Shown here in pieces: positions 28,494-63,660 of a DNA stretch of 64,000 nt (positions are counted from its first letter, which is position 1; every line of letters starts with the position of its first letter). The notes beneath the pieces were generated by a model. The model had not been told where the DNA came from. It ran no database searches and saw nothing but the letters and a program-made list of their open reading frames with translations. A program made the translations under genes and the position numbers. Source of the DNA: a virus; the IMG/VR virus record IMGVR_UViG_3300007512_000012, positions 32,001 through 96,000 of that record. One strand, given 5' to 3'.

Positions 28494-28891
28494 GCGCGCT
28501 TACCCCGGTTCTTCGCCGCGCGAGCACGCTTGTCGTACTCGGTGGTGTCCTTGCCCTTCGAGGCGGCCAGCTTCCCGGCCTCGGTCCAGTTGTCCACCCG
28601 CTCGCCTTCGACGTTGGGGGCCAGGCCGAACTGCGGGCCGTCCATCTTGAGCTGGTGCTCGCGCTGTCCGACCCGAGCACGCCGCTCGGCCATCTGGCGC
28701 TTCACCTGGATGTTCTTGCCGGGCCACACGTCGCCCCGCAGGACTCCGCCGACGCCGGGGGCGATCTTCTTCTCGGCCGGGGCCTCGCAGTCCGGGCACA
28801 CCTGCGGGGCGTTCCGGTTCGTGATGGACAGGGTTCGGAAGAAGGCGGTCCCGCACTCCTTGTCGCTGCACTCGTAGGCGTAGTCAGGCAT
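28490..28891 (-). CDS. FmdB-family zinc-ribbon protein (second copy)
   Basis: MPDYAYECSDKECG...CPDC; GGAGGTG RBS. Confidence 0.8.
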   Translation of the reverse strand: MPDYAYECSDKECGTAFFRTLSITNRNAPQVCPDCEAPAEKKIAPGVGGVLRGDVWPGKNIQVKRQMAERRARVGQREHQLKMDGPQFGLAPNVEGERVDNWTEAGKLAASKGKDTTEYDKRARAAKNRGKRA

Positions 28892-31775
28892 CTCGTAGCA
28901 CCTCCTGTGCTGCAAGATACCGAGCTGCCACGCGACGACTGCTCTGCTCGAACTCGGGGTGCTCTGCGATCATCTCACCCAGACGCAGAGTATCGGCTAG
29001 ATAGTGGAGATCGGGGCCGTCCCGGCCCTCGCTCCCCATCCGCTTGCGGAACTTCGGGATGTCCCACCGCTTCGAGACGACGTGGTCGAACACCGCCAGG
29101 ACGTGCTTGCAGGCCCGGTGCTGGCCGCTCGGGTCCTTCACCTTGGGCTTCGTCGCCAGGCCACGAGCCCGCCCGTAGAGGTAGTCGCCCTGCTTCGCGT
29201 GGAACTCCGGCCCCTGCCACTGCCAGAAGGGGCATGAGCAGCTCACCTTGACGTGGGCCTTCCGCATGTCGCGGACGTTGCCCTTGCGCAGCGCCTTGAG
29301 GCGGACCCGGTGTGCGCCCTTCGACCCCTGCACGTCGAACAGCCACACGGCGTTCTTCGAGTCCACGCGGGCGAGCCTGAGCTTGATGCCCCGGCTGCGG
29401 GCCACCAGGTCGGGGCCGCAGCCCTCGCGGATGTCGCGGATGAGGGCCGCCTGCCGCTGGATGTGCCCGGCCTCTTCACCAGGCAGGACCCGGCTGCCGG
29501 GCTCGCCCTTGACCTGGTCCTCGTGCGGGCCGAGCAGGCCGGGGTCGCCCGGCTTCTTCTTGCGGTCCCGCTTGCCCTTGCTCTTCGGCGTGCCCCGGTC
29601 GTACTTCGTGTCCGGGTCCATGTCCGGGGGCCGCTGCTCGCGGAAGAAGGTGGCGAGCACCTCGGAGGCGAGCTTGTTGACCGCCCCGTAGTAGAAGTCG
29701 TCGTCCTCGGGGTCGATGAGCTGGTCGTCGAGGGGCTCGTCTCCCCACCGCTTGTCGGTCGGGTGCATGAACTCCGACTCGATGGTGTAGAGGTTGACCA
29801 GGCTGTCGCCGATCTCCTCCGGGTCGCCATACGCCTCGATGCCGACCTCGGCGTCGATGAGGCCGAACATGGCGTCCTCGTCCTCCTCCGAGAGGAACCC
29901 GGCCACCACCAGGAACTCGCGCACGGGCATCGAGCGCAACATCCGGCTGCCAGGCTCCACCAGGTAGAAGTGGACCAGTCCGGTCATGCCGCTGATGTTG
30001 CGGACGTAGCCGAGCACCAGGTTGCCGTCTTCGGGTGCATCCGTCCGCACGAAGTCGCCCCCGAGGCCGATCTCCAGCACGAACGCGATGTCCGGGGCGG
30101 TGAGCACCTCACCGAGCCGCATCTTGAACCGCTCGGGGTGCTTGCGGCGAATCTGCTGCTGCTTCTTGAACTGCGGGTTCCGCTTGAGCCGCTTGTACCG
30201 CTTGCGCGACTGCTGCCGCGACTTCATCCGGTTGCGCTTGTAGCGCATCTTTGCCCGGATCTTGTCGATGCCTCGCTGCTTGCGACGCCGCTTGGTCGGC
30301 CGCCGCTTGAGCCGGAAGCCCGCGTAGGCCAGCCGGGTCAGCCAGGTGTCGAACAGGTCGTCGTCCTCGACGATGGGATCGTCCTCGCCGCCCTCGAACT
30401 CGAACACCTGGTCGAGGTAGGCGAACAGCTCGTCGGGGTCTTCGACGACGGCCTCGTCGAGGAACGTCCCGAGGCTCGCCGTGTCCCGGTCACCGTCGTC
30501 CCACTCGATGTGGACGGTGCCGAGCGGGCTCACCTCGATGATCTCGCCCCACTCCTCCGTGGGGAAGTGCAGGAACGGGATCTCGACGGTGGCGTATGCC
30601 CTCTTCTTCGCCTTCTCCCGCTGCCGCTTGCTGCGCTCGGCGATGTTCCGGGCTCCGCCGCCAGGCCGCCGCTTGTGCCGCTGCGGCAGCTCCTCCCGCC
30701 ACTCCTTGCGCTGGTTCCACATCCCGTGGTTGCGGAGCTGCCGCTGGCGGAGCTTCACCTTGCGGAGCTTCGGCCCCCGGTGCGTCCGATACCACTTGCG
30801 GTCGTACCGGGCGACCTGTGCCTTCTGCTCTCGCTCCCGCTGCTGGCCGGAGGGGTGGGGCGAGCGGTAGCGGGGCTTGTAGCTGATGGCCTCGCGGAAC
30901 AACCACTCGTCGTCGAACTCGTCGAACTCGCCCTCGGCCGTCATGCCGGGCCGCCGGACAGGGCCTTCCGTCCGGGCCGGGGTCGTCGGGTGGGTCTTGC
31001 CGCCGTCGTACTGACCGCCAGGCACGCCCTTCGTCCGGGCCTTGTCCTTGTGGATCGAGCCGCCGGAGTCACTGCCGGACTCGCCAGGCACGTTGAAGGT
31101 CACGGGGCCTTCGACCGGCTTCTTGCGCGACCAGGGCGGGGAGGGCAGGCCACGGGTCGGGTACTTGCCCGTCCCCGAGGTGTCGCCCGTGTCGGACTTC
31201 GTGGGGGACGGGGTCTTCGTCCACGTCTGGACCCCGAACTCCTTCTCCGGCTGGATGCCCGCATGTCGCGGGTGCAGGCCGCACATCTCCGGCCGGGGGT
31301 CCTTCATCCCCTTCCAGAACGTCGAGACGATACGGGCGACGCCCCGGTCGTTGACGAAGACCACCTGGAGGTCGCCGATGGTCTTGTCCACCCACTCGAC
31401 GGGCTCGCCGTAGTTGGTGGCCCGCTGAAAGTCGTTCCACTGCCAGGACTTCTGCGACTTCCAGTCGTTGAGCTTCTTGCTGAAGTTCCGCAGGGCGACC
31501 CGCAGGTCACCGACCGTGATGCCCCGCTGGTCCATCCGGTACTGCGCGTGGGGCGTGATCTGCATCTGCTTGAAGATGCCGCCGCCCTTCTCGCGCTCCA
31601 GGTCGTAGACCTTGCGGGCCTCGGGGTTCGTGAGCTTGCGGCCGTGCTCGACCTTCTCGGCCAGGTCGTGCTTCAGCCGGGGGCTGCGCACCTCGTCCTC
31701 GATGCGCTCGACGACCTGGCAAGGGCCACCGGGCCAGCCGAGGCTCGGGCTGAGGTCTGCGGCACGCTCCCCCAT
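28884..31775 (-). CDS. 963-aa multidomain protein: DUF4258/RelE-like domain, two Arg/Lys-rich repeats, SWIM zinc finger
   Basis: ITPHAQYRMDQRGIT; VSCSCPFW...ACKHVLAV. Confidence 0.7.
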   Translation of the reverse strand: MGERAADLSPSLGWPGGPCQVVERIEDEVRSPRLKHDLAEKVEHGRKLTNPEARKVYDLEREKGGGIFKQMQITPHAQYRMDQRGITVGDLRVALRNFSKKLNDWKSQKSWQWNDFQRATNYGEPVEWVDKTIGDLQVVFVNDRGVARIVSTFWKGMKDPRPEMCGLHPRHAGIQPEKEFGVQTWTKTPSPTKSDTGDTSGTGKYPTRGLPSPPWSRKKPVEGPVTFNVPGESGSDSGGSIHKDKARTKGVPGGQYDGGKTHPTTPARTEGPVRRPGMTAEGEFDEFDDEWLFREAISYKPRYRSPHPSGQQREREQKAQVARYDRKWYRTHRGPKLRKVKLRQRQLRNHGMWNQRKEWREELPQRHKRRPGGGARNIAERSKRQREKAKKRAYATVEIPFLHFPTEEWGEIIEVSPLGTVHIEWDDGDRDTASLGTFLDEAVVEDPDELFAYLDQVFEFEGGEDDPIVEDDDLFDTWLTRLAYAGFRLKRRPTKRRRKQRGIDKIRAKMRYKRNRMKSRQQSRKRYKRLKRNPQFKKQQQIRRKHPERFKMRLGEVLTAPDIAFVLEIGLGGDFVRTDAPEDGNLVLGYVRNISGMTGLVHFYLVEPGSRMLRSMPVREFLVVAGFLSEEDEDAMFGLIDAEVGIEAYGDPEEIGDSLVNLYTIESEFMHPTDKRWGDEPLDDQLIDPEDDDFYYGAVNKLASEVLATFFREQRPPDMDPDTKYDRGTPKSKGKRDRKKKPGDPGLLGPHEDQVKGEPGSRVLPGEEAGHIQRQAALIRDIREGCGPDLVARSRGIKLRLARVDSKNAVWLFDVQGSKGAHRVRLKALRKGNVRDMRKAHVKVSCSCPFWQWQGPEFHAKQGDYLYGRARGLATKPKVKDPSGQHRACKHVLAVFDHVVSKRWDIPKFRKRMGSEGRDGPDLHYLADTLRLGEMIAEHPEFEQSSRRVAARYLAAQEVLRDA

Positions 31776-31777
31776 CG

Positions 31778-32185
31778 TCAGCTCCCCTTGAGCTGCGCCA
31801 GCAAGTAGCGGACGGCCACTCGGTCCATGACCAGGGCCTCGTGGGAGGCGTAGCGGTGCGCTCCGCCGCCGAAGGCGGGAAGGACCGCCTCGTCCACCTG
31901 GGTCTTGTCGTGAAGGGGCAGCCGGGCTTCGAGGAACTTCTCGCCCATCTTCGTCAGGGCGAGCGACGTGCGGTCGAGGTCCAGCTCCAGCTTCTCCAGG
32001 CGACGGGGGGCCGCCTGGATGAGGTCGCCTGCCACCTGGTGCAGGTGGTCGGTGTGCTCAGACTGCTCGACGAGCTTCATCGCCCGGTTGACCAGGTGCT
32101 TGAGCCGGTGGGCCTCCACACGCGCAGCCACCACGCCCTCGGTGATGAGAGCCCAGGCTGCCTGGCTGCTCGCTGTCTTCGACAC
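31778..32185 (-). CDS. Helical hypothetical protein
   Basis: GGAGGAG RBS; C-terminal DRVAVRY. Confidence 0.7.
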   Translation of the reverse strand: MSKTASSQAAWALITEGVVAARVEAHRLKHLVNRAMKLVEQSEHTDHLHQVAGDLIQAAPRRLEKLELDLDRTSLALTKMGEKFLEARLPLHDKTQVDEAVLPAFGGGAHRYASHEALVMDRVAVRYLLAQLKGS

Positions 32186-36489: not shown

Positions 36490-37362
36490 CTAGCGGGTGA
36501 CGGTCAGGCGGGCGAGGCCGCGCGGGTTGTAGGCCCCGAGGCCCAGGTTCTCGAAGATCGAGAAGCCGATCATCCGGCGCTTCGGGTCGTCGGCCGACAG
36601 GACCGTCAGCTCGGTGCGGACCGGGATGCGGCCGAACATCTCCGGCTCGCAGCACAGGTACACCGTGCCGTTGGGCACGAGGCGGCTGGTGACGACGTTG
36701 GCCCCGTAGATGACCCCCTGGAGGCCCGTCTTCAGGAGCGTCGCCTGCGACTCGATGTCGAGGATGTCGCGGCCGAACTTGCGGATGTCCGCGTAGTCCC
36801 GCGCGTTCATGTAGATGCGGGCGACCCGGAGGTCGTGCCGCTCGATGAGCGCGAAGGCGTCCGCCAGCACCGCGCCCGAGATCGGGGCGATGACGGGGAT
36901 GTCGGCGTTGAGCTGACCCGGCAGGGAGTCGAAGCCCGCCGTGGCGACGGCGTCGAGGACGGCGAAGACGCGCTCGTCCTCGGCGGCCTGGATCTGCGCC
37001 CGGCCGAGGTCCTGGGACCGCTCGATCAGGTCGAAGCGGCGCTCCTTGATCTGGGTGAGCGGGATCTCCGGGTTCGACGCGATCTCGAAGAGCGGGAAGA
37101 TCACCCGGCGCGGCTTGGTGACCGCGAGGATGTTCTGGCCCTCTTCGCCGACCACGTAGGCGGTGATGTCGGGGTCCTTGTCGTAGATGGGCAGCGCACC
37201 GTCGGGGAGCTGCTCGACCAGGAAGGTCTTGCGGCCCACGGCGGCGTAGTCCCGCCGCGTGCGGAGGGGCTGCGTCATCGACGCGGCGAGCTTGGCGCGA
37301 CCCTGCGGGGTCTTGATGTACTCGCCGATGATCTTCTGCTTGACGGCGTTGGTGGCGTTCAT
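36490..37362 (-). CDS. Major capsid protein (HK97 fold, Bxz1/cluster C-like type)
   Basis: LAASMTQPLR..RDY, LPDGALPIYD, LFEIASNPEI, AQIQAAEDERVF resemble my recollection of Bxz1-type capsid proteins; follows protease, scaffold and decoration genes; strong RBS and terminator. Confidence 0.85.
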   Translation of the reverse strand: MNATNAVKQKIIGEYIKTPQGRAKLAASMTQPLRTRRDYAAVGRKTFLVEQLPDGALPIYDKDPDITAYVVGEEGQNILAVTKPRRVIFPLFEIASNPEIPLTQIKERRFDLIERSQDLGRAQIQAAEDERVFAVLDAVATAGFDSLPGQLNADIPVIAPISGAVLADAFALIERHDLRVARIYMNARDYADIRKFGRDILDIESQATLLKTGLQGVIYGANVVTSRLVPNGTVYLCCEPEMFGRIPVRTELTVLSADDPKRRMIGFSIFENLGLGAYNPRGLARLTVTR

Positions 37363-38288: not shown

Positions 38289-39806
38289 TCAGGAGAAGCT
38301 GCCGCTCACGTCCGGGTCGGAGGCCCAGAGGTTCGACAGCTCGGCGATCTCGTTGCCGCCGCTGGAGGCGACCTTCGGGACCTGGCCGACCGACTTGACG
38401 CCCTTGGACGCCTTGCGGGCCTGCGGCTGGAGGATGGCCGCGAGGCTGGCCTCCTTGTCGCTGCCCTCGTCGTCGCCCTCGTCCTCGTCCTCGGAGCCGA
38501 AGACCTCGTTGAAGGCGGCCTTGTCGGCGGCCGTCAGCTCGGTCCCGTCCGAGAGGCCCATCGGGTCGAAGCCGGTGGCGAAGAACTCGGCGTCGGAGGC
38601 CTCCTTGTCGGAGCCGCCCTCGTCCTCGTCGTCGTCGCCGCCCTCGTCGTCGGAGCCCTCGTCGTCACCGCCCTCGTCGTCGGAGCCCTCGTCCTCGTCG
38701 TCCTCGGACTTCTTGGCGGCCTCCTTGTCGGAGCCCTCCTCGTCGTCCTCGTCGTCGGAGGCGTTCTTCGAGGCCATCACGTCGCCGCAGGCGATCTCGC
38801 CGTCGTCCACCAGCTCGTCGTCCATGCCGTACTGCATGGCCTGGAGCATCTCCAGCTCGTCGTCGTCGAACTCGGCGACGTGGCCGAAGGCGGTCTTGTC
38901 GGACGCCTCCTTGTCGGAGCCCTCGTCGTCGTCGGACTCGTCCTCGGAGCCCTCCTTCTTCTTGGCCTCGCACATCTCCTGCATCTTGCCGTCGAGCTTC
39001 TCGCAGCCCGCGAGGACCTCGGCCCGAGCGATGATGCCGTCGTTGTCGGTGTCGAGGGACGCGAACATGGCGCGGGGGCCGGTCCAGTCCTCGGCCGTCA
39101 CGAAGCCGTCGCCGTCCAGGTCGAAGGCGTCGAACATCGCCATGACGGGGTTCGCGGCCTTGTCCGAGACGGCCGCCTCTTCCTTCTTCGCCTCCTGCTC
39201 GGACTTGCCGGAGGTGCCGAGGGTCTCGCCGCCGGGGTCGTTCTGGTCGGCGCTCTTGAGCGCCTTCAGCTCGGCCTCCATCGCGGCCAGGCGGGCCTCC
39301 ATCGGGTCCAGGGCCGGGGCCTCGTCCTCGGGGAACATCCCGAGCAGCTCCTCCTCCATCGAGAGGAAGTCGCCGCCGAGGCGCTCGACCGAGGCCTCCA
39401 GGGCGGTGTCGTCCATGCTCATGTAGCCGAACGCCTGGTTCTCGATGTCGTCCCACGACGCGGTCTTGCCGAGCGTGGCCCGCGCGAGCACGAGGCACTT
39501 GGCCGACTTGCGCCGGACGAGCTGCATCAGGTTGGCCTGGCGGCCGACCTGCCCGGTGTGGGCCGGGTGGTCCTGGTCCTCGACCCCGTAGCCGGGCGTC
39601 GCGGGCGGGCCGCTGTCCCCGTAGGGCGGCGGGTGAACGTCCTCGGCGAACTCCGAGGGGCCGCCGATGTTGTAGTCGTCCTTGCCCGGATCGTCCTGGG
39701 TGTGGGCCGGGTGGTCCTGGTCCTCGACTCCGTAGCCGGGGGTTGCGGGGGGAGCAGCCGCCTCACGGTCGAGGGCCGCCCACGTCATGCGCTGACGAGT
39801 GCTCAT
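38289..39806 (-). CDS. Putative capsid scaffolding protein, acidic, with an EF-hand pair
   Basis: Lies between protease and capsid genes; ATGA-coupled; DLDGDGFVTAED and DTDNDGIIARAE loops; D/E-rich repeats. Confidence 0.7.
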   Translation of the reverse strand: MSTRQRMTWAALDREAAAPPATPGYGVEDQDHPAHTQDDPGKDDYNIGGPSEFAEDVHPPPYGDSGPPATPGYGVEDQDHPAHTGQVGRQANLMQLVRRKSAKCLVLARATLGKTASWDDIENQAFGYMSMDDTALEASVERLGGDFLSMEEELLGMFPEDEAPALDPMEARLAAMEAELKALKSADQNDPGGETLGTSGKSEQEAKKEEAAVSDKAANPVMAMFDAFDLDGDGFVTAEDWTGPRAMFASLDTDNDGIIARAEVLAGCEKLDGKMQEMCEAKKKEGSEDESDDDEGSDKEASDKTAFGHVAEFDDDELEMLQAMQYGMDDELVDDGEIACGDVMASKNASDDEDDEEGSDKEAAKKSEDDEDEGSDDEGGDDEGSDDEGGDDDEDEGGSDKEASDAEFFATGFDPMGLSDGTELTAADKAAFNEVFGSEDEDEGDDEGSDKEASLAAILQPQARKASKGVKSVGQVPKVASSGGNEIAELSNLWASDPDVSGSFS

Positions 39807-41269
39807 CGCTTCGTCTCCTTGCCTGTGGCGACTGCCAGGGATGGGTTCCTGCTCCCGTTGCGATCCTGGCCTCGCCGCGAGATGAGCTTGCCGAGCTTGA
39901 TCAAGGTCTGTGCCTCGGCGGTTGTGGGCTTGCGGCCGAGCGCCGCTCGACAAGCCCGGAGGAATTGACTCGACGAGCTGTACTCGCCGATGTCGCCGAG
40001 CTGCGCAGCAGCCCGGTACACAGGCACGGGGATCTCCACCCCGTACTCCGCGTGCAGTAGGGCCACCTTGTCCATCAGGTCGGTGTCGCTCGAAGCGTGC
40101 CGACAGAGGAAAGCCACAGTGGCGTCGTACACCGCCGCCTGCTTGACCACGTTGTCGTTGGGAGCCGCCGAAGACTCCTCGGGACCGAGGGCCTCGTCGA
40201 GGTCCTTCTGGTCCATGTCCTTCTTGAGCTTCTTCTTGACCCGATCCCGCATGTGATCGGTCAGCTCACGTTCCATGTCGTCGAACGGGCCGCCCTCGTC
40301 CTTCTTCTCGGCCGGGGCGTCCACGTCGTCGTCTTCGTCGCCCCACCCGGCCATGAAGTGGTCGCCGCCGAAGGCGAGGGCAGCGGCCTTGCGGCGGGTG
40401 CCCTTCGTCCACTCCTCCGGGGGAGTCGCGAGGATGGCCGAGGCGGCCTTGCCGAGCTTGTCGCCCTGGTGGATGGCGAGCACGTTGCGGAGGACCGCGC
40501 CCGTGAAGGCGGGGGTGCCGACCCAGGACGCCTCGATGAAGTGGACGCCGCCGGTCGGGTCGAGGCTCGGGTGACCGCACAGCTCCGCGACGCGGTGCTG
40601 ACGCCCCTGCTCGTCGAAGAAGACGTTCCCCTTCTCGTACTTGATGTGGGGGCACATCTCCGTCTCGTCGGCGGCCCAGTGCCCGCACTTCGTGCAGATG
40701 GTGCCATCGACGGTGCAGCCCATCGACAGGGTGCCCATCTTGCCGGACTCGATGGCCTCGACCAGGTCCGCGTGCTTGCGGTCCGTGGCGATGAGGATGT
40801 CCACGTAGACCGAGTCGCCGATGTCGCGAGCGACCGCGTCGATGACCCGGCCCTTCGACAGCTCCTCGACCTGGACGTGCTCGACGAAGTTCTGCGCCCC
40901 GATGAAGGTCCGGTAGCTCTTGAGCAGAACGTCCCGGTCCCAGGCGTCGAGGTTGTTGTTGATGAACTTGTCGCAGCCGAGCTTGACCCGGAACTTGCCG
41001 TACTTCCGGTTGATCCTGAAGCCGCCCTCGGAGTGCTTGCCGAGCTTCGTGTTCGGCGGCTCGAAGGTGTCCACCGACGCCACGATGGTCGCGTGGGTCA
41101 GCAGGTAGTCGCTCGGGTTGAAGGGCTTGCCGAAGATCTCCGACGCGCGGTCGATGAGGTTCTCCGACACCTCCGCAGCGGCCTTGGCGGCCGTGCGAAC
41201 CTTCGCCCAGCCCGCACGTCCGACGTGCGGGGTGACGACCTCAGCCCTGGCGTACTTCAGGAAGGCCAT
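39803..41269 (-). CDS. Prohead (capsid maturation) protease
   Basis: NNNLDAW...YRTFIG..NFVEH...SKGRVID...LSMGC...CTKCGH...CPHI...FIEASWVGTPAF. Confidence 0.8.
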   Translation of the reverse strand: MAFLKYARAEVVTPHVGRAGWAKVRTAAKAAAEVSENLIDRASEIFGKPFNPSDYLLTHATIVASVDTFEPPNTKLGKHSEGGFRINRKYGKFRVKLGCDKFINNNLDAWDRDVLLKSYRTFIGAQNFVEHVQVEELSKGRVIDAVARDIGDSVYVDILIATDRKHADLVEAIESGKMGTLSMGCTVDGTICTKCGHWAADETEMCPHIKYEKGNVFFDEQGRQHRVAELCGHPSLDPTGGVHFIEASWVGTPAFTGAVLRNVLAIHQGDKLGKAASAILATPPEEWTKGTRRKAAALAFGGDHFMAGWGDEDDDVDAPAEKKDEGGPFDDMERELTDHMRDRVKKKLKKDMDQKDLDEALGPEESSAAPNDNVVKQAAVYDATVAFLCRHASSDTDLMDKVALLHAEYGVEIPVPVYRAAAQLGDIGEYSSSSQFLRACRAALGRKPTTAEAQTLIKLGKLISRRGQDRNGSRNPSLAVATGKETKR

Positions 41270-42171
41270 CAGGCAGCCTCCACCGGGTTGCCGTCGAGGT
41301 CGCAGGCCAGGACTCGGTCGCTGCCGTCACCGTCGAAGCCGAAGCTCTTGCGGTACTCGGAGTCGTCCGGGTCCACCACGATCTCGAAGCTGTGCCCGAC
41401 ACCACCGATCTTGCCGATGTACGCGAGCATCCGGGCCATCGACTCGGCCCCGTCGCCGTTGCCGCTGAACTTCACCGTGAGGGTGCGCTCGTCGGCTGCC
41501 GACTTCACCTGCTGGACCAGGTCGAACCCCTGGTCCATCGTGCCGTCCCACTCCGCCTGCAAGTCGTTCTGCTGGCCGTCGTCGTTGGGCTCGTAGGCCG
41601 GGTCGCCGATGATCTGGTCCCGCTTGATGAGGAACATGCAGTGCGGGCACCCGAGCAGGCGGTGGCTCTGGCCGTCCACCCGCTTGTAGTTCGCCGGGCG
41701 GAGGTGGATGGGGTTGCCCTCGTCGTCGGCCTTGCACTTCGGGCAGGCGTACTTCCCGCCGTCCAGTTCGGCCTTCGTGCCCCGGTAGTGGCGGTCCTTG
41801 CTGGCCCAGTAGAGGGCCGACTTGATCCAGGCGTGGCTGATCCGGTCGATGGACAGGCGGGCAGCCGACTTCGCCACAGGCCCACCAGGCACGCTCACGG
41901 TCCCCGCCCCGCCGGGAACCGTGCTGTGCTCTGGATCGGGCGTCTTCGTGATGATGTCGGTCACCCTCTGCACGTCTTCGACCGGGTAGCGGCCGGAACC
42001 CCACGGGAAGTCGATGTCCACCTGGCCGATGCCAGGCCACACCGCAGTCACCGTCCCCGCCTGCGACTCGTCCGTCGCTCCACCCGCAAGCGGGTACGCC
42101 AGGTCACCAACAGCGAACTCGGAGGCCCGCTGCTGGTAATCGACGAAGACGGTGGCGTGGCGATTCCCCAC
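41269..42171 (-). CDS. Head-region protein with a zinc ribbon
   Basis: CPKC...CPHC; modular, with KSAA linkers. Confidence 0.7.
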   Translation of the reverse strand: MGNRHATVFVDYQQRASEFAVGDLAYPLAGGATDESQAGTVTAVWPGIGQVDIDFPWGSGRYPVEDVQRVTDIITKTPDPEHSTVPGGAGTVSVPGGPVAKSAARLSIDRISHAWIKSALYWASKDRHYRGTKAELDGGKYACPKCKADDEGNPIHLRPANYKRVDGQSHRLLGCPHCMFLIKRDQIIGDPAYEPNDDGQQNDLQAEWDGTMDQGFDLVQQVKSAADERTLTVKFSGNGDGAESMARMLAYIGKIGGVGHSFEIVVDPDDSEYRKSFGFDGDGSDRVLACDLDGNPVEAA

Positions 42172-51518: not shown

Positions 51519-53234
51519 CTACCCGAACCGGCCGCCGCCCTCTTCCTGTGGCTTCTCGTACTTCAGCCCGAGGTACTCGGCGATCTTCTCGGCGAAGTCG
51601 CTGTTCTCCGCCAGGGCGTCGCCGACCCGCGAGTAGAGGCCACGGAACAGCTCGTTGAACGTCGCGTCCTGCACGGTGCCCACGTCCTGCATGAGCTTCT
51701 CGCGCACCGTCACCGGGTCGAGGTTCAGGTGTTCGAGGATCGTGTCGATGTCCAGCGAGCCCTTCTGGTAGAGGTTCATCAGGGCGTCGAACGTCTCGGT
51801 GTTGTCGCGGAACGACAGCCGGGTGAACGACAAGCGGGGGACGATGACCTGGAGGTTGCCGTCCTCGTCTTCCTCGACGAACCCCATGCGGGCGCACATC
51901 GGCCGGAAGAACTGCTCCTCCACCAACCCCTGCAACGTCTCCCGGTTGAGCATGAACCGCTGGTTGATGACCTCCAGGTTGATGCGGTCACCGGAGTAGC
52001 TGGACTCGCCGGAGAGCAGGCTCTCGGTGACCCCGAGGCCCGCGTACATCTGGCGGTCGGTGAAGTCGAAGACCCACGACCAGTCGGGGAGCCGCTGGTC
52101 CGCCCCCATCTCCTCCCACGTCACCTGGAAGTTGGTGATGATGGAGAAGTCGGGGTCCTGAAGGGCCAGGTCCACCTGCTCGCGGAGGTCCTCGGTCTGC
52201 TCCGCGTTCATGTCCTCGGCGTAGATGAGCCGGTAGGGCGTCATGTGCCGCGAGGCGATGGACGTGAGGCTCTGGCGGACCTTGTCGCGGAAGACGAGCG
52301 TCCGCAGGCAGCGGAGCAGGATGCTCTTGCCACGGGGCTCATACTGCGACTTCTTGCGGGCCATCAGGTAGTAGAACGACCCCGCCTCCGGGTCCGTGTT
52401 CAGCGGGATGTTCTGCCCCTCGGCGATGGCCGCCACCACGTCCTCGGGCATCGAGTTCACGACGCGGGCCGCGTGGGGGTCCCCGGAGGCTGCTCGGTTG
52501 ATGACCGCCTTCGTCTTCGAGTCGGGGATCAGCTCGATGAGCTTCTCGTCCGTGAAGGGGAAGCTCTCGACGTGGATCTGCTCGGGGGGCAGGCAGCGGA
52601 TGGCCGTCCAGCCCTTGTAGTTCTTCTTGAGCCAGGCCGCCATGCGCTCGTTGGCGTCCTCGTGCCGGACCTTGCGCTCGACGATCTCACCGTCCTTGGT
52701 GATCTCGCGGACGATCTCGAACTCGATGTCCTCCGGCATGTCCGGCGAGGTGTCCTCGCAGAAGATGTGGGCCTCGCCGAGCAGGTTCCACTCGTGGTTG
52801 ATCTCCATCAGCCGGTGAAGGAGCCCCTGCCGCTTCGCCCAGTTCTCGCAGAAGCGAAGCGACGCAGAGGCGAGCTTCTCGTTGCGGGCCTTCGGCTTGC
52901 GGAGGCGGACCTTCGAGAGCGGCAGCTCGTCGAGCAGGTCGATGGCCTGGCCGACGAAGGGGTCGTGGTCGTAGAAGAAGCGGTAGAAGTTGCGCTTCTC
53001 GTCGTCGCTCTGCGGCAGTTCGAGGAAGTCGGTGGACAGCTCGGGCGAGTAGAAGTTGCCGCCCGCCCCCATCATGGAGCCGCCCGCAGCACCGCCGTAG
53101 CCGCCGCCGACACCGCACGCGGCGGCCTTCATCGACGACGTGACGATCTTCGTGGGCTTGCCCACCGTCACACCCTTCCGGTCTGCCACCTTGCGGACGA
53201 CCGTCGTGTCGTCGGGGTCGTTCGACCTAGCCAT
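51519..53234 (-). CDS. Portal protein
   Basis: 571 aa after the terminase; RFFYDHDPFVGQAIDL...PLS, RGKSIL-x-R, GLGVTESLLSGESSY. Confidence 0.85.
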   Translation of the reverse strand: MARSNDPDDTTVVRKVADRKGVTVGKPTKIVTSSMKAAACGVGGGYGGAAGGSMMGAGGNFYSPELSTDFLELPQSDDEKRNFYRFFYDHDPFVGQAIDLLDELPLSKVRLRKPKARNEKLASASLRFCENWAKRQGLLHRLMEINHEWNLLGEAHIFCEDTSPDMPEDIEFEIVREITKDGEIVERKVRHEDANERMAAWLKKNYKGWTAIRCLPPEQIHVESFPFTDEKLIELIPDSKTKAVINRAASGDPHAARVVNSMPEDVVAAIAEGQNIPLNTDPEAGSFYYLMARKKSQYEPRGKSILLRCLRTLVFRDKVRQSLTSIASRHMTPYRLIYAEDMNAEQTEDLREQVDLALQDPDFSIITNFQVTWEEMGADQRLPDWSWVFDFTDRQMYAGLGVTESLLSGESSYSGDRINLEVINQRFMLNRETLQGLVEEQFFRPMCARMGFVEEDEDGNLQVIVPRLSFTRLSFRDNTETFDALMNLYQKGSLDIDTILEHLNLDPVTVREKLMQDVGTVQDATFNELFRGLYSRVGDALAENSDFAEKIAEYLGLKYEKPQEEGGGRFG

Positions 53235-54033: not shown

Positions 54034-56088
54034 TCACCTCCCTCCCCGGCCGCGTGAGCGACCCCGGATCAGGGACCGCTGGCGGTCGGGGCTCGAACCA
54101 CCGAGCCGAGAGCGGGCCATCGCCTTGCGCCGGGCCTTCGCCAGCTCGGTCGGCGACGCCTGGCCCTTGTGGCGGCCCTTCTTGCGCGAGGTGCCCGCGA
54201 TGTACTTCCGCTTGCCCATGTGCTGGGTGGCCTCCCACACCATGCGGACCAGGGCGTCGGAGTAGTCGTCGTACTTGTCGGGCTGGTTGGGGGCCTCGAC
54301 CGTCACGATGTACTTGCTGTGCGTCTCCGCCTGAAGCTCCAGCAGCTCCTCGATGTAGTCGGCGTGGGCGTTCGGGTTCTCCGGGTTGGGCTGGTCGAAC
54401 AGCACCAGCTTTTGCTCGAACATCAGGGTCTTGAAGTTGGCGAAGATCTGGCTGGTGAGCTGCTTCGTGAAGAAGACCGACTCGCACTGCGTCAGGCCGC
54501 GCTTGTGCAAGGCCGTCTCGAAGGGGATGCCCGCCCACTGGTCGAACATGCCCTTCTCGATGTAGAAGCGGCGGCTCAGGGCGTACAGCCAGGCGGTGAT
54601 GTCGTCGAAGGACAGCCGCTCCAGGTCTTCGTAGTCGCCCTCACCTGCCCGGATGCGCTCGATGTAGTCGAGGACGATCCGGTGCTCCTCGTCGATGTGG
54701 CCGATGGCGACCGCGCAGTAGTCGCCGTCCACCAGGCCCGCCGAGATGTCGATGCCCATGAAGTGCGGGGCACGCAGCGGGGCCTTCTGCGCGGGCCGGA
54801 GCATCGGGTCCACGCAACGCAGCAGCGGCCCCGGCTTCAGCCAGCCCTTCGTCCGGTCCGTGAACTCGGCCCCGAACTCCGTGAAGAAGCTGTCCGGGTC
54901 GGTGGCGTACTCCTCCGCGAGGAACGTCGCCTCGACCGTGGGGTTCACCTCCCACGTCGGGGCCTGGATGCAGAGCATGTTCCGCGACTCCAGGCCGCCG
55001 GAGTAGCCCTGCCTGAACTTGCGGAAGAAGAAGCCCTGCTTCCCGAGGGGGGACGAGATCGAGAGGATGCGCCCCTCGACCTTGCCGATGGCCCGCCGCC
55101 GGTTGCGGGGGTCCTTCGGCGAGAAGGCCGCCAGCGACGGCTTGACGGCCCGGTAGATCGTGAGCGCGTCGCTCTGGCCCACGTCGTTGAAGTGAGCCAG
55201 CTCGTCGAGGATGATGACGATGTTGCCTGCACCGCGCAGGCCCTTCGCCACGCACGACTTGAAGCTGACCTTGATGGTCGCCTTGGCCGTGGGGTCGTCC
55301 ACGTACCGGCCGAACCGGCTGATGTCCTCCGGCGACTGGAACTTCGCGTAGGACATCGTGTTGTTGGCGGTGTAGGGCTTGTAGAAGGCGCAGTTCGAGA
55401 AGTGGCCGCTGGCCTCGTTGTAGAGCAGACCCGCCTGGTCCTTGTCCGTCGCCACGCTGATGAGCTGGATGACGTTGGTCTTCGGGATGCCGTAGTACCG
55501 CTGCGGGTTGTCCTTGAGGATGAGCTTGTAGACCTCGTAGGCCATCACGCAGGCGCAGATGAAGGTCTTGCCGGAACGACGGCCGATGGAGAGCACCAGC
55601 TCGCGGCGCTCCCGGCCAGGCACCACCTCCTTGATGTTGCTGCGGCCCTCGGCGTACAGGAACCGGAGGTACTCGGCCTCCGTCATGTAGCGGGGGTTCT
55701 CCCGCCGCCAGTCGGTGATCTTGACCCGGAACTTGTAGAAGCCGGTCTCGTCCTCCATCGCGTCCGGGTAGTCGAGCGGCTCCTCCGGCTCGACTTCATC
55801 GGGCAGGAGATCGATCAGCTCGCCGGGCTCGTCCTCATCCTCGTCGTCCGGCAGGAACGCGATCTCGTCGTAGTTCGGGTGGTCGGACGGGACCTTCTTC
55901 GTGAGGTCCAGGCCCCACGGGTTGTCGTCGAGGGGGATGCCGTAGTGGGCCTTCAGGATGACCCGCTGCACGGGATACAAGGGGATGTTGAGTCCCCAGG
56001 ACGACTCCACGAACTCGATGATGTTCGCTGGCTGCTGCCCTGTTCGCTCTTGCTTTCCCGCTGCGAGGGCGATGTCCGCCAAGCTCAT
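54034..56088 (-). CDS. terL: Terminase large subunit
   Basis: LYPVQ adenine-binding motif, Walker A GRRSGKT, Walker B IILDE, coupling motif ISSP, RNase H-like MGID...DDYSDA. Confidence 0.92.
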   Translation of the reverse strand: MSLADIALAAGKQERTGQQPANIIEFVESSWGLNIPLYPVQRVILKAHYGIPLDDNPWGLDLTKKVPSDHPNYDEIAFLPDDEDEDEPGELIDLLPDEVEPEEPLDYPDAMEDETGFYKFRVKITDWRRENPRYMTEAEYLRFLYAEGRSNIKEVVPGRERRELVLSIGRRSGKTFICACVMAYEVYKLILKDNPQRYYGIPKTNVIQLISVATDKDQAGLLYNEASGHFSNCAFYKPYTANNTMSYAKFQSPEDISRFGRYVDDPTAKATIKVSFKSCVAKGLRGAGNIVIILDELAHFNDVGQSDALTIYRAVKPSLAAFSPKDPRNRRRAIGKVEGRILSISSPLGKQGFFFRKFRQGYSGGLESRNMLCIQAPTWEVNPTVEATFLAEEYATDPDSFFTEFGAEFTDRTKGWLKPGPLLRCVDPMLRPAQKAPLRAPHFMGIDISAGLVDGDYCAVAIGHIDEEHRIVLDYIERIRAGEGDYEDLERLSFDDITAWLYALSRRFYIEKGMFDQWAGIPFETALHKRGLTQCESVFFTKQLTSQIFANFKTLMFEQKLVLFDQPNPENPNAHADYIEELLELQAETHSKYIVTVEAPNQPDKYDDYSDALVRMVWEATQHMGKRKYIAGTSRKKGRHKGQASPTELAKARRKAMARSRLGGSSPDRQRSLIRGRSRGRGGR

Positions 56089-57345: not shown

Positions 57346-59592
57346 CTACAGGTGCAGCCCGCCGAACAACACGTCGCCGATGTCCTCGGTGATGGCCGGT
57401 TCGTCCACCTCGACGCTCATGCTCCCGTCGAGGTTGAACTCGCCGGGGTTGAACAGCGACGCGGTGATCTCGTGGTCGGGCGCGTTGGCGACCTGGATCA
57501 TCTGCTGCTTGAAGGTCGCCGCGTCGGCGGGGAGCTGGTGCATCAGCTCCTTGCCGTACTTCGTGCAGACGCCGTTGGCGTTCGCCAGGGCGCAGCCCGA
57601 GCAGCGGCTCATCGCCTTCACGAAGGGCACCTGGTTGGCCCGGTGGGCCGCCGCCGCCTTCTCGCAGCCCTTCGTGCCGGTCTTCGAGGCGTAGGCCGCC
57701 GCGTCCACGTACAGGTGCCCGGCCAGGCCCTCGTGCTCCTCCCGCAGCATCGCGATGAGGCCCTCGCCTGCCGCCCGGAGGGGGCTGGCGAACCGGACGT
57801 GCATCAGGGCGGTCAGGTCGTCCCCGGTCAGCCCCTCCGACATCTTCTGCCGGACCCAGCGGGCCATCGAGCGGAACTCGGCGACCTTGATGCCGCTGGC
57901 TGCCGACGCCTGGCGCATGGCCTCCTCGTCGGCCGCGAGCTTCTTGGTCGCCACCCGCTGCTGGAGAGCTGCCGTGCGGACGGCCCCGCCGTACTCCTTC
58001 GCGGGCTTCGCGGCGGCCATCTTGACCTTGCGGGTGCCCGAGGCGTTGGCGTAGGCCGTGGCGACCTTGAGCACCATCTCGGGCGTCGCCTCGGCTGCCG
58101 CCGTGCGGGCCTCGTCCACGGTGATCTGGCCCGCCTGCGCCATCCTCGCGACGGTGGCGTGGGCCTTCTTCATCTGCGCGGCGGCCAGTTCGGCCTGCTT
58201 GAGCTGCGCCCAGGCCGCGTCACGGCCCGCCTGGCGGTGAGCCGTCACCTGCGTCCCGACGCCGCCGTACATGGCCTCTCGGGGCATCTGGTTGGCCCTG
58301 GCGAGCTTCTCGGCCGCCTTGCGGAGGTCGGCCGGGTTGGCGTCGGACTTCGCGATGCGCAGGGCGTCCTGCTTCGAGATGAGCCCGGCGTCGGCCGCCT
58401 TCTTCACGAGCTTCAGGGCCGCCGTGCGGGCCTTCGCCTGGTCGTCGCGGGCGATGACCTGCTGCACCTGGCGGGGAGCCTTCGCAGCGGCCTGCTTGGC
58501 CTCGGCGAGGGTCACCCGGTCGGCCGGGGGGGTGTGGACCGGCTTCGTGGCGACCACCGGAGCGGCCTCCTTCGGGCCGGTCAGGAAGGCGAGCTGGAGG
58601 GTCTTCTTCGGGTCGTCTCCGACGCTGGCGACCTTGTAGCCCGCCGCCCGCAGGTGCGGGAGGTACTGGCGCAGGGCCTTCCGCCACGGGACCTCGCTGA
58701 CCATCTGCATCGAGAGCTTCGAGGCGATGCGCGGGTTGTCGGTGATGACGTACCGGGCGGTGCGGGCGAGCTTCTTCAGCTCCTTCGCCCACTTGCCGTT
58801 GTGCAGGCCGGGGAAGGCGGAGGCCCGCACGAAGACCTTGCCCGCGACCCCGTGCTCCTCGGCGATGCGGGTCGTCGCCTGCTCGGCGGCCTGCTTCGGC
58901 AGGTGGGCGTGCAGGTAGCGGCTGATCTCGGTCATCGACCGGCCGTAGTGCGACAGGCGCACGGCCTTCTTGATGTGCCAGGCAGCTTCAGCGGCGGACT
59001 TCTCGACGCCTGGCGTCGCCGGGACCCCGCTCTCGATGGACTTCTCGTAGTCGGCGACGGCCTTGTCCCGGTTCGGGACCAGGGCCAGGCCATCGGTGCG
59101 CCGGTTGACGCCCCACGCCTCCTCCAGCTCCAGGGTGGACTTCAGCGGGGGCTTGTCGGGCCGAAGCTCCTTCGGCAGCCGCTCCGGGTCCTGCTCCTGA
59201 GTGGGGTCGAGCCAGGCCAGGTCCGCCATGCTCGCCGCCTGGCGGACGTTCTCGGCCATGTGCAGGGCACCCTCCTCCGGGGAGAGCATCTGCGAGAGGT
59301 CGAAATCGCCCTCGTCGTCCACGAAGGACAGGCCGAGCCCGTCGTCCGCGCTCTTGCTGTCGGACACGAGACCGTCCGGCAGGGCGGACATGCCGGTGGA
59401 CTGCGCGGGGGTGATCGGGCCGGACATGCCGGACTGGTCGCCTCGGCTCCGGGTGCCCTCGCCGAGCGTCTGGTCGTGGTGGAAGCCGTCGAGCCCGTAG
59501 TTGGAGCCCTCGGTCCAGGTGAACTCGTCCGCCGGAAGGTCGGAGTCGGCCATGATGATGTCGGCCCAGGAGGCCAGCTTCTTGTTGCTCAT
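57346..59592 (-). CDS. Large Ala/Lys-rich hypothetical protein with a C-terminal Cys cluster
   Basis: ATGA-coupled start MSNKKLAS; CEK...CSGC...CTKY. Confidence 0.75.
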   Translation of the reverse strand: MSNKKLASWADIIMADSDLPADEFTWTEGSNYGLDGFHHDQTLGEGTRSRGDQSGMSGPITPAQSTGMSALPDGLVSDSKSADDGLGLSFVDDEGDFDLSQMLSPEEGALHMAENVRQAASMADLAWLDPTQEQDPERLPKELRPDKPPLKSTLELEEAWGVNRRTDGLALVPNRDKAVADYEKSIESGVPATPGVEKSAAEAAWHIKKAVRLSHYGRSMTEISRYLHAHLPKQAAEQATTRIAEEHGVAGKVFVRASAFPGLHNGKWAKELKKLARTARYVITDNPRIASKLSMQMVSEVPWRKALRQYLPHLRAAGYKVASVGDDPKKTLQLAFLTGPKEAAPVVATKPVHTPPADRVTLAEAKQAAAKAPRQVQQVIARDDQAKARTAALKLVKKAADAGLISKQDALRIAKSDANPADLRKAAEKLARANQMPREAMYGGVGTQVTAHRQAGRDAAWAQLKQAELAAAQMKKAHATVARMAQAGQITVDEARTAAAEATPEMVLKVATAYANASGTRKVKMAAAKPAKEYGGAVRTAALQQRVATKKLAADEEAMRQASAASGIKVAEFRSMARWVRQKMSEGLTGDDLTALMHVRFASPLRAAGEGLIAMLREEHEGLAGHLYVDAAAYASKTGTKGCEKAAAAHRANQVPFVKAMSRCSGCALANANGVCTKYGKELMHQLPADAATFKQQMIQVANAPDHEITASLFNPGEFNLDGSMSVEVDEPAITEDIGDVLFGGLHL

Positions 59593-60176
59593 GGGGAGCC
59601 TCCGTCGTCCATCTCGGCTTCCTCGCCCTCGGCCCACTCCTCCGGGTCCTCTCGGATCTCGTCCACGTCGTCCATGATCTGCTTGACCTCGCCGCGCTCA
59701 CGCGGGTTGCCACCAGAGTCATCGACATCCGGGTGCCAGTGGACCGCCTGCATCTCGTCGTAGATGGTGTCGGTCACGGCCGAGAGGGCCTCGTCGCAGT
59801 TGGCGAGCTGCTTGCGGATGTCCTTGATGGGCATCACGTAGCCCTTGCCGCCCAGGTTGCCGTCCGGGCTGATGCGCTGCGAGCGGATCTTCGTGAACGT
59901 GGATCGGGCCGTCTGGATGTGCCCGAGGGCCATCAGGGCGGAGCGGAGCACCTTCGCCAGCGGCTTGAGGTGCTTCGCGTTGAAGGCGTAGTCCGGGTCG
60001 ATGCTGCGCTCGGACGCCTGCGGCGGGTTCCAGCCCCACTCGTTGTGGTCGCCTCCCCGGTCCTTGATGAACCGGACCTCGCCCGCCGTCTTCGTCCGAG
60101 CCGTCCGCACGGACGCCCGCACGTACCGACGAGCCAGCCGGTCGATGGCTTCCTTCATCTGGCGGTTGTCGGACAC
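59589..60176 (-). CDS. Hypothetical protein
   Basis: GGAGGTGA RBS with GTG start; DRLARRY motif. Confidence 0.7.
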   Translation of the reverse strand: MSDNRQMKEAIDRLARRYVRASVRTARTKTAGEVRFIKDRGGDHNEWGWNPPQASERSIDPDYAFNAKHLKPLAKVLRSALMALGHIQTARSTFTKIRSQRISPDGNLGGKGYVMPIKDIRKQLANCDEALSAVTDTIYDEMQAVHWHPDVDDSGGNPRERGEVKQIMDDVDEIREDPEEWAEGEEAEMDDGGSP

Positions 60177-60196
60177 GAGCGGCTCACCTCCGGCTT

Positions 60197-60217
60197 CTAC
60201 AGGACTCGGGATATAGG
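60197..60217 (-). promoter_or_regulatory. Putative late promoter CCTAT-N12-GTAG
   Basis: Exact motif upstream of 60176. Confidence 0.7.
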
Positions 60218-60232
60218 CTGGATACCAGCGGC

Positions 60233-60865
60233 CTACACCTTCAGCGGGTTGCCGTCCTCCGAGAACAGGCGCTCGATGACGAACTCCCCGTCGCTCTCCT
60301 TGAAGGACCACAGATCCTTCGTCGCCTTGTGGACCAGGTCGTCCGACCCGTTCTTCGCCTGCTCGAACAGCGACGACAGGTCGCCGAACGAGACGAAGCT
60401 CATCCGCACCGCACCGGCCCGCTTCTTGTTCACCCCCGCCAGGCGGAGGTGCTCGGGGTGGACCGGCAGGAAGATGCCGTCGTCCCAGGCGACCATGACC
60501 ATGCCGTCGTGCGCGGTCACGTCGCCGTTGGCCGAGCGGACGGTGACCACCGTGCCCTCGTCCGCCGGGACGGTGGCGTAGGCCAGCACCGAGCCGAGGT
60601 TGTGCTTGAAGGCCACCCGCGTCCCGGCCTCGACCGGGAGCTTCAGGGCGTTGGCCGCCCGCGAGGCGTCGGTCAGCTCGCGGAGAGCTGTCGTCGAGGC
60701 ACCCTCGATGGTCCGGCCCTGGAGCACATGGTCGATGGCCCCGGTGTCGCCCCAGTGGATGTCGCCACCCACCTCGTCGCGGCCCGGCAAGAAGCTCGCG
60801 TGAGCCTCCTTGCGCACCTTGGTCGGGAGCTGCTCATCGTCGGGGAGGAAGTCTGTCAAGTCCAC
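60233..60865 (-). CDS. Hypothetical protein with an SH3-like segment
   Basis: GTRV...GTVV...VMVAWDDG; C-terminal LVHKATKDLW...IERLF. Confidence 0.7.
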   Translation of the reverse strand: MDLTDFLPDDEQLPTKVRKEAHASFLPGRDEVGGDIHWGDTGAIDHVLQGRTIEGASTTALRELTDASRAANALKLPVEAGTRVAFKHNLGSVLAYATVPADEGTVVTVRSANGDVTAHDGMVMVAWDDGIFLPVHPEHLRLAGVNKKRAGAVRMSFVSFGDLSSLFEQAKNGSDDLVHKATKDLWSFKESDGEFVIERLFSEDGNPLKV

Positions 60866-60873
60866 GAGTCACC

Positions 60874-62145: not shown

Positions 62146-62153
62146 CGTCTACC

Positions 62154-62843
62154 TCACACGAACACGTCGTAGCCGACATCGGCATCCGCCCCGACTGCGG
62201 GGACGTGGCCGAGTTCGATGGTGAACCCCGTCTTGAGCTTGAGGGCCGTGGGGACGTGGGCGTCGAAGAACCCGCGAGGCTCCAGCAGGACGCGGTAGGC
62301 AGCCGTCGAGAGCGGTGTGGTGAAGACCACCGCCAGCGAGCCGCCGTCCGCGTTCGTGATGGTGACGACCCCGGAGAGGTCGCTCGTCTGACCCGTCTTG
62401 ACCAGCACCGAGTAGCCGACCGTCTTCGGATCAGCGAGGGTCCCGTAGGTGGTCGCGGCCGTAGCCGTGAACCCGGTGGTGGTCTTCGCCGCCGCTTCGA
62501 GGACGGTGGCATCCGGGGTGGTGAACACGACGCGGTAGTTCGTGTTGTTCAGCACCCCGCCGGGGATGACGACCGCCTGCGTGGTCTGGCCGGTGAAGAC
62601 GACGTTGCCGCTGTCCACCTCGGTCTCCTGCTGGAGCAGAGCCACCAGCTCGGTCGCCTCCTTCACGTCGTCCATCACAGCCTGGGGCATGGCTGTGAAC
62701 GGATCGCAGATCCCGCCGGTCGGCGTGCGGAAGTTCCGCACGCTCACGACACCCTGGGCGTCCACCACCACGTCGAAGTAGTAGGTCTGCCCGCCCGAGC
62801 TGGACGAGTAGGTGTGGACGGACTGCTGGCGGGTCAACGCCAT
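62154..62843 (-). CDS. Virion protein with repeated beta-sandwich modules
   Basis: Two Y-R-V...KT-x-TGFT repeats, similar to the C-terminus of 60874-62145. Confidence 0.6.
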   Translation of the reverse strand: MALTRQQSVHTYSSSSGGQTYYFDVVVDAQGVVSVRNFRTPTGGICDPFTAMPQAVMDDVKEATELVALLQQETEVDSGNVVFTGQTTQAVVIPGGVLNNTNYRVVFTTPDATVLEAAAKTTTGFTATAATTYGTLADPKTVGYSVLVKTGQTSDLSGVVTITNADGGSLAVVFTTPLSTAAYRVLLEPRGFFDAHVPTALKLKTGFTIELGHVPAVGADADVGYDVFV

Positions 62844-62857
62844 CGCGGGCTACCTCC

Positions 62858-63334
62858 TCAGGCGCTCGCCCGCAGGGCTCGCAGCTCGGCCAGGCGCTCC
62901 GCCTGGTACTCCTCCAGCGAGCTGTACTTGCTGCGGTCCACGCCGTCCGGCCACCGCTGCTGGATGTACTTCTTGTTGTACTCGGACTTGTTCTTGGCGG
63001 AGCCGGTGTCGGGCTTCTTCTGGCCGCCGGGGCCGCCGTTCGTCGTGACGTAGCAGCGGTCCGCCTCGTTGCCCGTCTCGTAGAAGCACTTGCCCTTGCC
63101 CTTGTTGTCGCCGAGCCACTTGCCGGGGTCCTTGACGTTCTTGGCGTAGTCCGGGTTCGTCTTCGGGTTGTGCGGGTTGAACTGCCGCCCGGCGAACATC
63201 TCGTCCAGGTCCCCTGCGAGCATCTCGTCGCCGCAGGCGCAGGAGGCGTGCCGCCGCAGGAGGGGGACGATGAAGGGCCGCGTCTCGGGAACCTCCGAGG
63301 CGATGCGCTTGAGGGTCTGCTTGATCGTGCTCAT
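62858..63334 (-). CDS. Hypothetical protein
   Basis: AAGGAG RBS before MSTIKQ. Confidence 0.65.
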   Translation of the reverse strand: MSTIKQTLKRIASEVPETRPFIVPLLRRHASCACGDEMLAGDLDEMFAGRQFNPHNPKTNPDYAKNVKDPGKWLGDNKGKGKCFYETGNEADRCYVTTNGGPGGQKKPDTGSAKNKSEYNKKYIQQRWPDGVDRSKYSSLEEYQAERLAELRALRASA

Positions 63335-63348
63335 GTGTGCTCGCTCCT

Positions 63349-63660
63349 TCACCAGATTCCGGTGGTCTCGAAGCCCCGCTTCTCGAACCACTCGCCGAGG
63401 GCCTTCAAACCGTCGTGATCTCGGGACCAGAGTTCCAGTCCGTCGAAGTCGGCCTTGATGCCGAGGTCGGCCACTCGGGGAACCCCCTTCATGGCGACCT
63501 TGCCATCACGGAACGAGTACAGGAGGTTCGCGATGTTGCGGATCTCCTTCGCGCCGTAGAGCACCCTGATCCGATATTCGGGGAAGGAGACGGCACGGAG
63601 CCACCGCTGGGCGACCCGCTTCGTCATCAACACCCGCTTGTCGGAACTGGCCTTGGTCAT
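63349..63660 (-). CDS. Hypothetical protein
   Basis: AGGAGG RBS; KRVAQRW motif. Confidence 0.7.
   Translation of the reverse strand: MTKASSDKRVLMTKRVAQRWLRAVSFPEYRIRVLYGAKEIRNIANLLYSFRDGKVAMKGVPRVADLGIKADFDGLELWSRDHDGLKALGEWFEKRGFETTGIW

Follow-up and report, generated by a model that had tools for sequence, protein, structure and literature searches.

A short helical motif shared by unrelated head-region proteins of an uncultured huge phage: a candidate capsid-targeting tag

Locus and gene content

The window, a stretch of 64,000 nucleotides covering positions 32,001 to 96,000 of the IMG/VR record IMGVR_UViG_3300007512_000012, lies within a 110,937-bp contig of an uncultured huge phage and has a GC (guanine plus cytosine) content of 68%. 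Several otherwise unrelated proteins encoded in its head region share the motif R-[VL]-A-x-R-[YW], termed the tag below, which is considered here as a candidate signal for targeting cargo to the capsid. Nearly all genes of the window are located on the minus strand. Read along this strand, the head genes encode the terminase large subunit (54034-56088), the portal protein (51519-53234), an enzyme polyprotein of 2805 amino acids (aa) (43047-51464), two conserved proteins without assigned function, the prohead protease (39803-41269), a scaffold-like protein (38289-39953), a 229-aa protein and the major capsid protein (36490-37362). The capsid protein was recognized by matches to major-head-protein PHROGs, the protease by PHROG and tblastn matches. 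No Pfam family matched the protease, and its PHROG matches carried only the generic label 'head maturation protease'. Pfam and PHROG annotation of the tagged proteins and their neighbours was mostly empty.

The closest records are LR745208.1 (uncultured, 485 kb) and, further off, Tunturiibacter phage Tunturi_5. Related loci were fetched around the protease (28 loci; protease identity 34-77%, GC 42-66%) and around a 196-aa protein encoded at 59589-60176 (seven loci). The major capsid protein is 84-98% identical over 29 clade loci and 49% identical in Tunturi_5. By these identities, the shell protein is constrained to an unusual degree. Across the same 29 loci, with GC contents of 42-66%, the protease is 34-77% identical, the portal protein 63-88% and the terminase 46-70%.

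Copies of the motif in the window

The strict motif has seven matches in five proteins, all on the minus strand at 28.9-63.7 kb and all at exactly the places given by the sequence-only reading, an earlier inspection of the letters and translations. Bit scores stem from a scan matrix whose training set consisted solely of relatives that are further from the window than its nearest group. In a 963-aa protein (28884-31775), the tag occupies residues 948-953 (28917-28934; 19.8 bits), ten residues before the C-terminus. A 135-aa protein (31778-32185) carries it at residues 122-127 (31805-31822), eight residues before the end. Three copies are located in the polyprotein: at residues 1430-1435 (47160-47177; 13.9 bits), about 18 residues ahead of the first GNAT-like domain; at residues 2062-2067 (45264-45281), about eight residues ahead of the second GNAT; and at residues 2269-2274 (44643-44660), after a conserved D-L-S-x-N-Y-K junction. 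The N-terminal leader of a 196/240-aa protein (59589-60176/60311) harbors the tag at 60123-60140, which is residue 58 of the open reading frame (ORF) 59589-60311 and residue 13 with a start at 60176. The seventh copy comprises residues 15-20 (63601-63618) of a 103-aa protein (63349-63660).

Looser copies were found in addition. A variant with Ala at position 5 is present at residues 110-115 (41827-41844; 14.0 bits) of a 300-aa protein (41269-42171), which is encoded directly upstream of the protease. This copy, suspected in the sequence-only reading, is genuine: the form R-V-A-x-A-[YF]-[VI]-K-K stands at the tag site in 27 of 27 relatives with an orthologue, and the score was obtained with the distant-relative matrix. 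Residues 83-88 (60602-60619; 12.5 bits) of a 210-aa protein (60233-60865) form an additional candidate tag. The polyprotein contains two degenerate copies, R-T-A-K-K-F at residues 1076-1081 (48222-48239), just behind the LigT/2H phosphoesterase, and K-T-A-A-K-G at residues 1611-1616 (46617-46634), directly ahead of topoisomerase IB; the two bridge the strict motif and sequences of the R-T-A-A type. Thus the proposed strict form was borne out, but the real motif is wider, with V, L, I, M or T at position 2, R, K or A at position 5 and Y, W, F or H at position 6.

The sharers are five proteins, probably seven. Pairwise comparison detected no significant similarity beyond the motif, in agreement with the earlier description of the carriers as unrelated, and hidden paralogy was ruled out since pairwise similarity ends at the motif. 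Motif and matrix scans detected no tag in the shell, portal, terminase, scaffold or protease, nor in any protein outside the contig's head region.

Enrichment over background

Per-protein shuffles gave an expectation of 0.06 strict matches (2000 trials, maximum 2), compared to the seven observed. In the whole 110,937-bp contig, whose called genes amount to about 35.5k aa, there was no further in-frame strict match, and the non-coding frames of the contig contained two only. With the distant-relative matrix, eight matches of at least 12 bits were detected in the contig against 0.25 expected. All of them are located at 28.9-63.7 kb, and they include the copy in the 300-aa protein and the new candidate in the 210-aa protein.

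Relatives with a GC content below 55% showed five strict matches versus 0.08 expected and 12 matches of the broad form versus 0.34 expected. In relatives of at least 55% GC, the strict motif was found 14 times (0.13 expected) and the broad form 17 times (0.70 expected). The motif is no composition artefact, because relatives of 42-55% GC are enriched just as much. The sequence-only reading had named a frequency equal to that of Arg/Ala-rich high-GC proteins as a finding that would speak against a signal; the per-protein shuffles and the low-GC relatives ruled out such a background. The codons for the same residues vary among the seven window copies. Since the copies use different codons, a DNA-level repeat or recombination linker was ruled out as well. 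Sequences of the R-T-A-A type are also enriched (18 versus 5.3 expected).

Conservation in orthologues and at polyprotein junctions

Comparison of homologues indicates that termini and linkers of orthologues retain the motif in their protein sequence even as the flanks diverge. The placement at termini and domain junctions, proposed from the window, was thus recovered in the orthologues. In the 135-aa family (100 homologues, 48-99% identity), the broad motif is present in 80 members, mostly 3-14 residues from the C-terminus and behind a variable linker. Some members carry tandem double copies, and one subfamily has an extra domain past the tag. For the 196-aa family, 594 homologues were found; analysis of the best 120 gave 114 distinct leaders. 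The N-terminal 20-35 residues of this family vary in length and sequence; a copy of the R-[VLI]-A type was identified in 68 of the 114 leaders (about 60%), and 52 fit the broad motif. In the 103-aa family, V-A-x-R-W near the N-terminus is invariant in all orthologues.

The polyprotein is located between portal and protease and contains Pfam domains for a CCA/poly(A)-polymerase-type nucleotidyltransferase, a LigT/2H phosphoesterase, a topoisomerase IB and GNAT. A LAGLIDADG intein (residues 164-610) splits the CCA/poly(A)-polymerase-type head domain. Homologues occur in 25 related loci, and domain content varies among those compared in detail. Domain order or content differs from that of the window in L003, L007, L008, L014, L023, L026 and L027, with LigT first in several.

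Three orthologous junctions are tagged: behind LigT, ahead of topoisomerase IB and past D-L-S-x-N-Y-K. At the last, the motif is present in most relatives. The junction before topoisomerase IB reads R-[VIL]-[AS]-[AS]-K-[YF] in most relatives, the window copy at residue 1611 being degenerate. At the LigT border, R-[LMVT]-A-x-x-x was found in five of six relatives with a LigT domain, permuted order included, and the full motif in two only. Relatives whose domains are reordered, or that have an insertion or lack a domain next to the motif, keep the tag; the residue-2062 tag, for example, is kept in L003 and L007, where the second GNAT behind the tag is absent. From these alignments, tag positions appear to be places where polyprotein domains are acquired, lost or relocated.

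Helical character

Pooled copies give approximately A-[VI]-[DE]-R-[VLI]-A-x-[RK]-[YWFH]-[LVM]-x-A. Positions -1, 2, 6 and 7 are conserved as hydrophobic and position 8 is free. Position 4 is biased to Ala/Ser; Gly is rare here but common at the equivalent position in the protease-type sites described below. The hydrophobic moment of the family profile peaks at 80-100 degrees, as in a helix, and not at 160-180 degrees, as in a strand. An AlphaFold2 model of the 300-aa protein places the tag in a helix (residues 101-123) past a disordered linker (74-101) and between two confident domains. In the 103-aa protein, the model shows the tag in an N-terminal helix (4-24) with a low-confidence hinge before the domain. 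Both modelled copies are low-confidence free helices adjoining disordered hinges. According to profiles and models, the motif forms the central part of an amphipathic helix of 10-12 residues.

The 300-aa protein is present clade-wide. Its model comprises an N-terminal SH3/KOW/Tudor-like barrel, the disordered linker, the tag helix and a zinc-ribbon with two C-x-x-C pairs. Foldseek revealed no match to this model in the PDB at E <=0.001; the best rows were KOW/SH3/Tudor-like barrels matching the N-terminal domain.

Distribution in related genomes

LR745208.1 is a whole genome (485 kb) outside the training set of the matrix, and its 570 ORF-derived proteins were scanned. Fourteen matches of at least 12 bits were obtained versus 0.7 expected, an enrichment of about 20-fold. 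Those outside the head module include small proteins tagged 7-14 residues from the N-terminus and a protein whose C-terminus bears tandem tags. Also outside the head module, two stand-alone proteins of 264 and 434 aa, both with N-terminal tags, are homologous to domains inside the polyproteins of other relatives. A stand-alone LigT/2H phosphoesterase (347195-348688; L045:4195-5688) has two tags, one directly past the domain. This two-tag protein shows a weak Pfam match to Acb1 (anti-CBASS) and is encoded distant from the head module. The tag travels with cargo-type modules, fused or free, and therefore an address function is favoured over mere junction cutting: stand-alone tagged proteins need no junction cleavage and would need an address.

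Among cultivated phages, Tunturi_5 is the nearest relative, with a capsid protein of 49% identity; no tag was detected in its head module. For this reason its annotations are not transferable.

A second motif and the prohead protease

A second conserved motif, [KR]-x-A-[SAG], was identified in the head proteins. The N-arm of the capsid protein contains a conserved K-L-A-A at residues 24-27. The scaffold-like protein has a conserved [KR]-x-A-[SA] at the N-terminus and two sites within about 45 residues of the C-terminus. In the protease, conserved [KR]-x-A-[SAG] sites are located at residues 25-28 and around 293-297, the latter just behind the catalytic domain. The portal, the terminase and several other proteins showed no conserved site of this type. 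A candidate site in the 196-aa protein, K-T-A-G (60081-60092, minus strand), marks the beginning of the conserved domain and is kept in six of seven loci. In the 114 homologues of this family, [KR]-[TV]-A-G-E-V-R-F is nearly invariant at the domain start, 12-20 residues past the tag and often with a second R-T-A-[SG] ahead. Because this distribution is as expected of maturation sites, [KR]-x-A-[SAG] is the probable prohead-protease cutting site, and it is probably cut after Ala. Some N-terminal tags have no [KR]-x-A-[SAG] site nearby.

The scaffold-like protein is very acidic (isoelectric point 4.1; Asp plus Glu 25%) and contains an EF-hand. A duplicated P-P-A-x-P-G-Y-G-x-E-D-Q-D-H-P-A-H element near its N-terminus is kept clade-wide, and the true start of the ORF is probably a Met about 48 codons in. 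The scaffolds are also rich in repeats of the K-[EK]-A-[SAK] type. The sequence R-T-A-[AR] occurs four times in a 763-aa protein (57346-59637, minus strand), together with two conserved sites of the form [KR]-x-A-[SA]; going by these sites, the protein may be another processed head protein.

Interpretation of the tag

The best explanation of the motif, to which we give an even chance, is a capsid-targeting tag for head cargo comparable to that of phage T4. This proposal of the sequence-only reading agrees with the placement, the conservation and the helix fit; it needs changing in the width of the motif and in its restriction to the head module. A conserved part of the assembling prohead would bind the tag, so that tagged proteins would be built into the capsid. 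Candidate partners are the inner face of the conserved capsid protein, the very acidic scaffold or the protease. The cargo would consist of small stand-alone proteins with an N- or C-terminal tag and of the enzyme domains of the portal-adjacent polyprotein. The prohead protease would then cut [KR]-x-A before S, A or G, so that the polyprotein enzymes would be separated and some proteins would lose their tag. Judged by its first residues, the tag may sometimes be cut itself.

A narrower form of this proposal is doubtful in our judgement. Here the tag would be a position-independent cargo signal, acting from the N-terminus, the C-terminus or an internal place, and would dock on the inner surface of the capsid protein in the manner of encapsulin cargo, within a tailed huge phage. 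If docking of this kind takes place, the capsid protein would be so conserved because many cargo tags depend on it.

Several observations weigh against capsid targeting. The C-terminal tag of the 963-aa protein is not kept in the distant orthologues of L025 and L026, both of which reach that end, and by this comparison the copy is lineage-specific. The polyprotein has five tags, though one would suffice. The first three tag residues, R-[VLI]-A, fit the cutting motif, and Ala/Ser stands at position 4 in about half of the copies. The head module of LR745208.1 holds five of the 14 matches and nine are located elsewhere; the matches within the folds of ribonucleotide reductase and PIN/PhoH are likely to be spurious. 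Confinement to the head region, as first described, thus applies to the own contig, where all copies lie at 28.9-63.7 kb, and a general rule of 'head-region only' was discarded since it fails in LR745208.1.

Because R-[VLI]-A fits the cutting motif, the tag could itself be cut or be only an extended protease site. In the latter case, which seems possible although rather unlikely, the prohead protease would cut behind R-[VLI]-A and recognise [RK]-[aromatic] on the primed side, and the motif would mark the cutting places of polyproteins and propeptides without any role in targeting. Such a site would account for the agreement of R-[VLI]-A with the [KR]-x-A-[SAG] of the presumed maturation sites, for the location of the motif exactly on polyprotein domain borders and for the tandem R-T-A sites in the 196-aa leaders. 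Before topoisomerase IB, position 4 is always Ala/Ser, and the window copy has drifted to plain K-T-A-A. However, the candidate maturation sites of capsid, scaffold and protease show no preference at the places matching tag positions 5-7. In the tag, by contrast, conservation is strong at positions 2, 5, 6 and 7, and position 4 accepts many residues. In many cases the tag is found within 3-15 residues of a terminus, and its helical periodicity and the predicted helices fit a docking helix better than an extended substrate. Trimming of 3-14 C-terminal or 7-15 N-terminal residues would be purposeless unless one of the pieces is functional, and members of the 196-aa family possess, further along, an invariant site distinct from the tag.

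The helix may also tag proteins for another role, namely binding of packaged DNA, interaction with another assembly or trafficking factor, or a function inside the host following ejection, such as docking on a host protein. This is unlikely. The tag is indeed basic, with R at position 1, R or K at position 5 and many K/R residues nearby, and among the nine LR745208.1 matches outside the head module some are on enzymes of nucleic-acid metabolism. The invariant Ala and aromatic positions, however, suggest a protein-protein interface rather than DNA binding, the own contig has every copy in the head region, and the most conserved copy resides in the protein directly upstream of the protease. A lack of any shared function, the motif being a chance or compositional recurrence in Arg/Ala-rich proteins of a 68% GC genome where both residues are common, or a DNA junction left by the domain insertions and deletions seen directly beside it, is highly improbable given an excess of more than 100-fold over shuffles in the window, of about 35- to 110-fold in low- and high-GC relatives and of about 20-fold in the independent complete genome LR745208.1, together with retention in hundreds of homologues and codons that vary between copies.

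Comparison with known systems

The capsid-targeting sequence (CTS) of phage T4 is carried by IPI-III and Alt and processed by the protease gp21; a single propeptide of ten residues carries the determinants of both targeting and processing (PMC9026906). As in T4, a short peptide is common to otherwise unrelated proteins. It can be terminal and adjoin or overlap a site that is presumed here to be cut by the prohead protease, targeting and processing would be separable within few residues, and it would offer an evolutionary route to load variable cargo into the head. The 196-aa family mirrors the T4 layout, with the tag in a variable leader 12-20 residues ahead of an invariant protease-type site. 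The two peptides have no sequence similarity, and the tag is basic, unlike the T4 CTS. The presumed cut of the phage described here follows Ala in [KR]-x-A, whereas T4 cuts after Glu in [LI]-x-E. The T4 CTS is N-terminal; the tag is also found at C-termini and internal junctions, in some cases without a nearby cutting site.

Polyvalent proteins, known from phages and conjugative elements, are giant multi-enzyme proteins encoded beside portal and head genes and predicted to be packaged and injected; processing via embedded metallopeptidase domains is proposed for them (Iyer et al. 2017, PMC5512222). The polyprotein resembles them in combining at least two unrelated effector-type domains in one polypeptide between portal and protease. 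The portion of that source covered here describes no conserved junction tag and no cutting by a prohead protease (PMC5512222). A further difference is the presence of the same tag on stand-alone proteins.

Giant phages of the phiKZ/SPN3US type produce many head-internal proteins as precursors, and their prohead protease cuts a short consensus ending in Glu (A-x-E type). They represent a separate phage lineage, and we know of no common helical tag defined for their propeptides. In herpesviruses, assemblin cuts its maturation and release sites between Ala and Ser. The second motif is similar in that the presumed cut falls after Ala before a small residue, with one conserved site about 25 residues from the scaffold C-terminus and others flanking the protease domain. 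By sequence, the P3 residue is basic here and hydrophobic there, so the likeness is one of pattern and placement only.

Encapsulin cargo peptides and the coat-binding helices at scaffold C-termini (P22, 80-alpha/SaPI1) are short terminal peptides that dock inside an HK97-type shell. The encapsulin peptides are mostly extended rather than helical. All these sequences are unrelated to the tag, and shell binding is one of several candidates for it; the PHROG match of the capsid protein and its 84-98% identity in the clade are no more than compatible with shell docking.

Biological meaning

The proposal combines the T4 CTS with polyvalent proteins. Its distinctive features are a basic helical tag of unrelated sequence, the occurrence of this tag at N-termini, C-termini and junctions alike, and a protease that is likely Ala-specific. 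To our knowledge, no member of this prohead protease family has been characterised; the second motif offers a predicted specificity for it, [KR]-x-A followed by a small residue. If the tag acts as a position-independent signal, the injected enzyme set of the clade could be read from sequence alone and would comprise a LigT/Acb1-like phosphoesterase, topoisomerase IB, a CCA-type nucleotidyltransferase, acetyltransferases and many unknowns. A targeting tag usable at either protein end, unlike the N-terminal T4 CTS, would be a candidate tool for loading foreign proteins into heads. If the targeting function holds, the capsid-delivered proteins of an abundant clade of uncultured huge phages could be listed by a simple motif search, and the proteins so listed would likely be first-strike counter-defence enzymes injected with the DNA.

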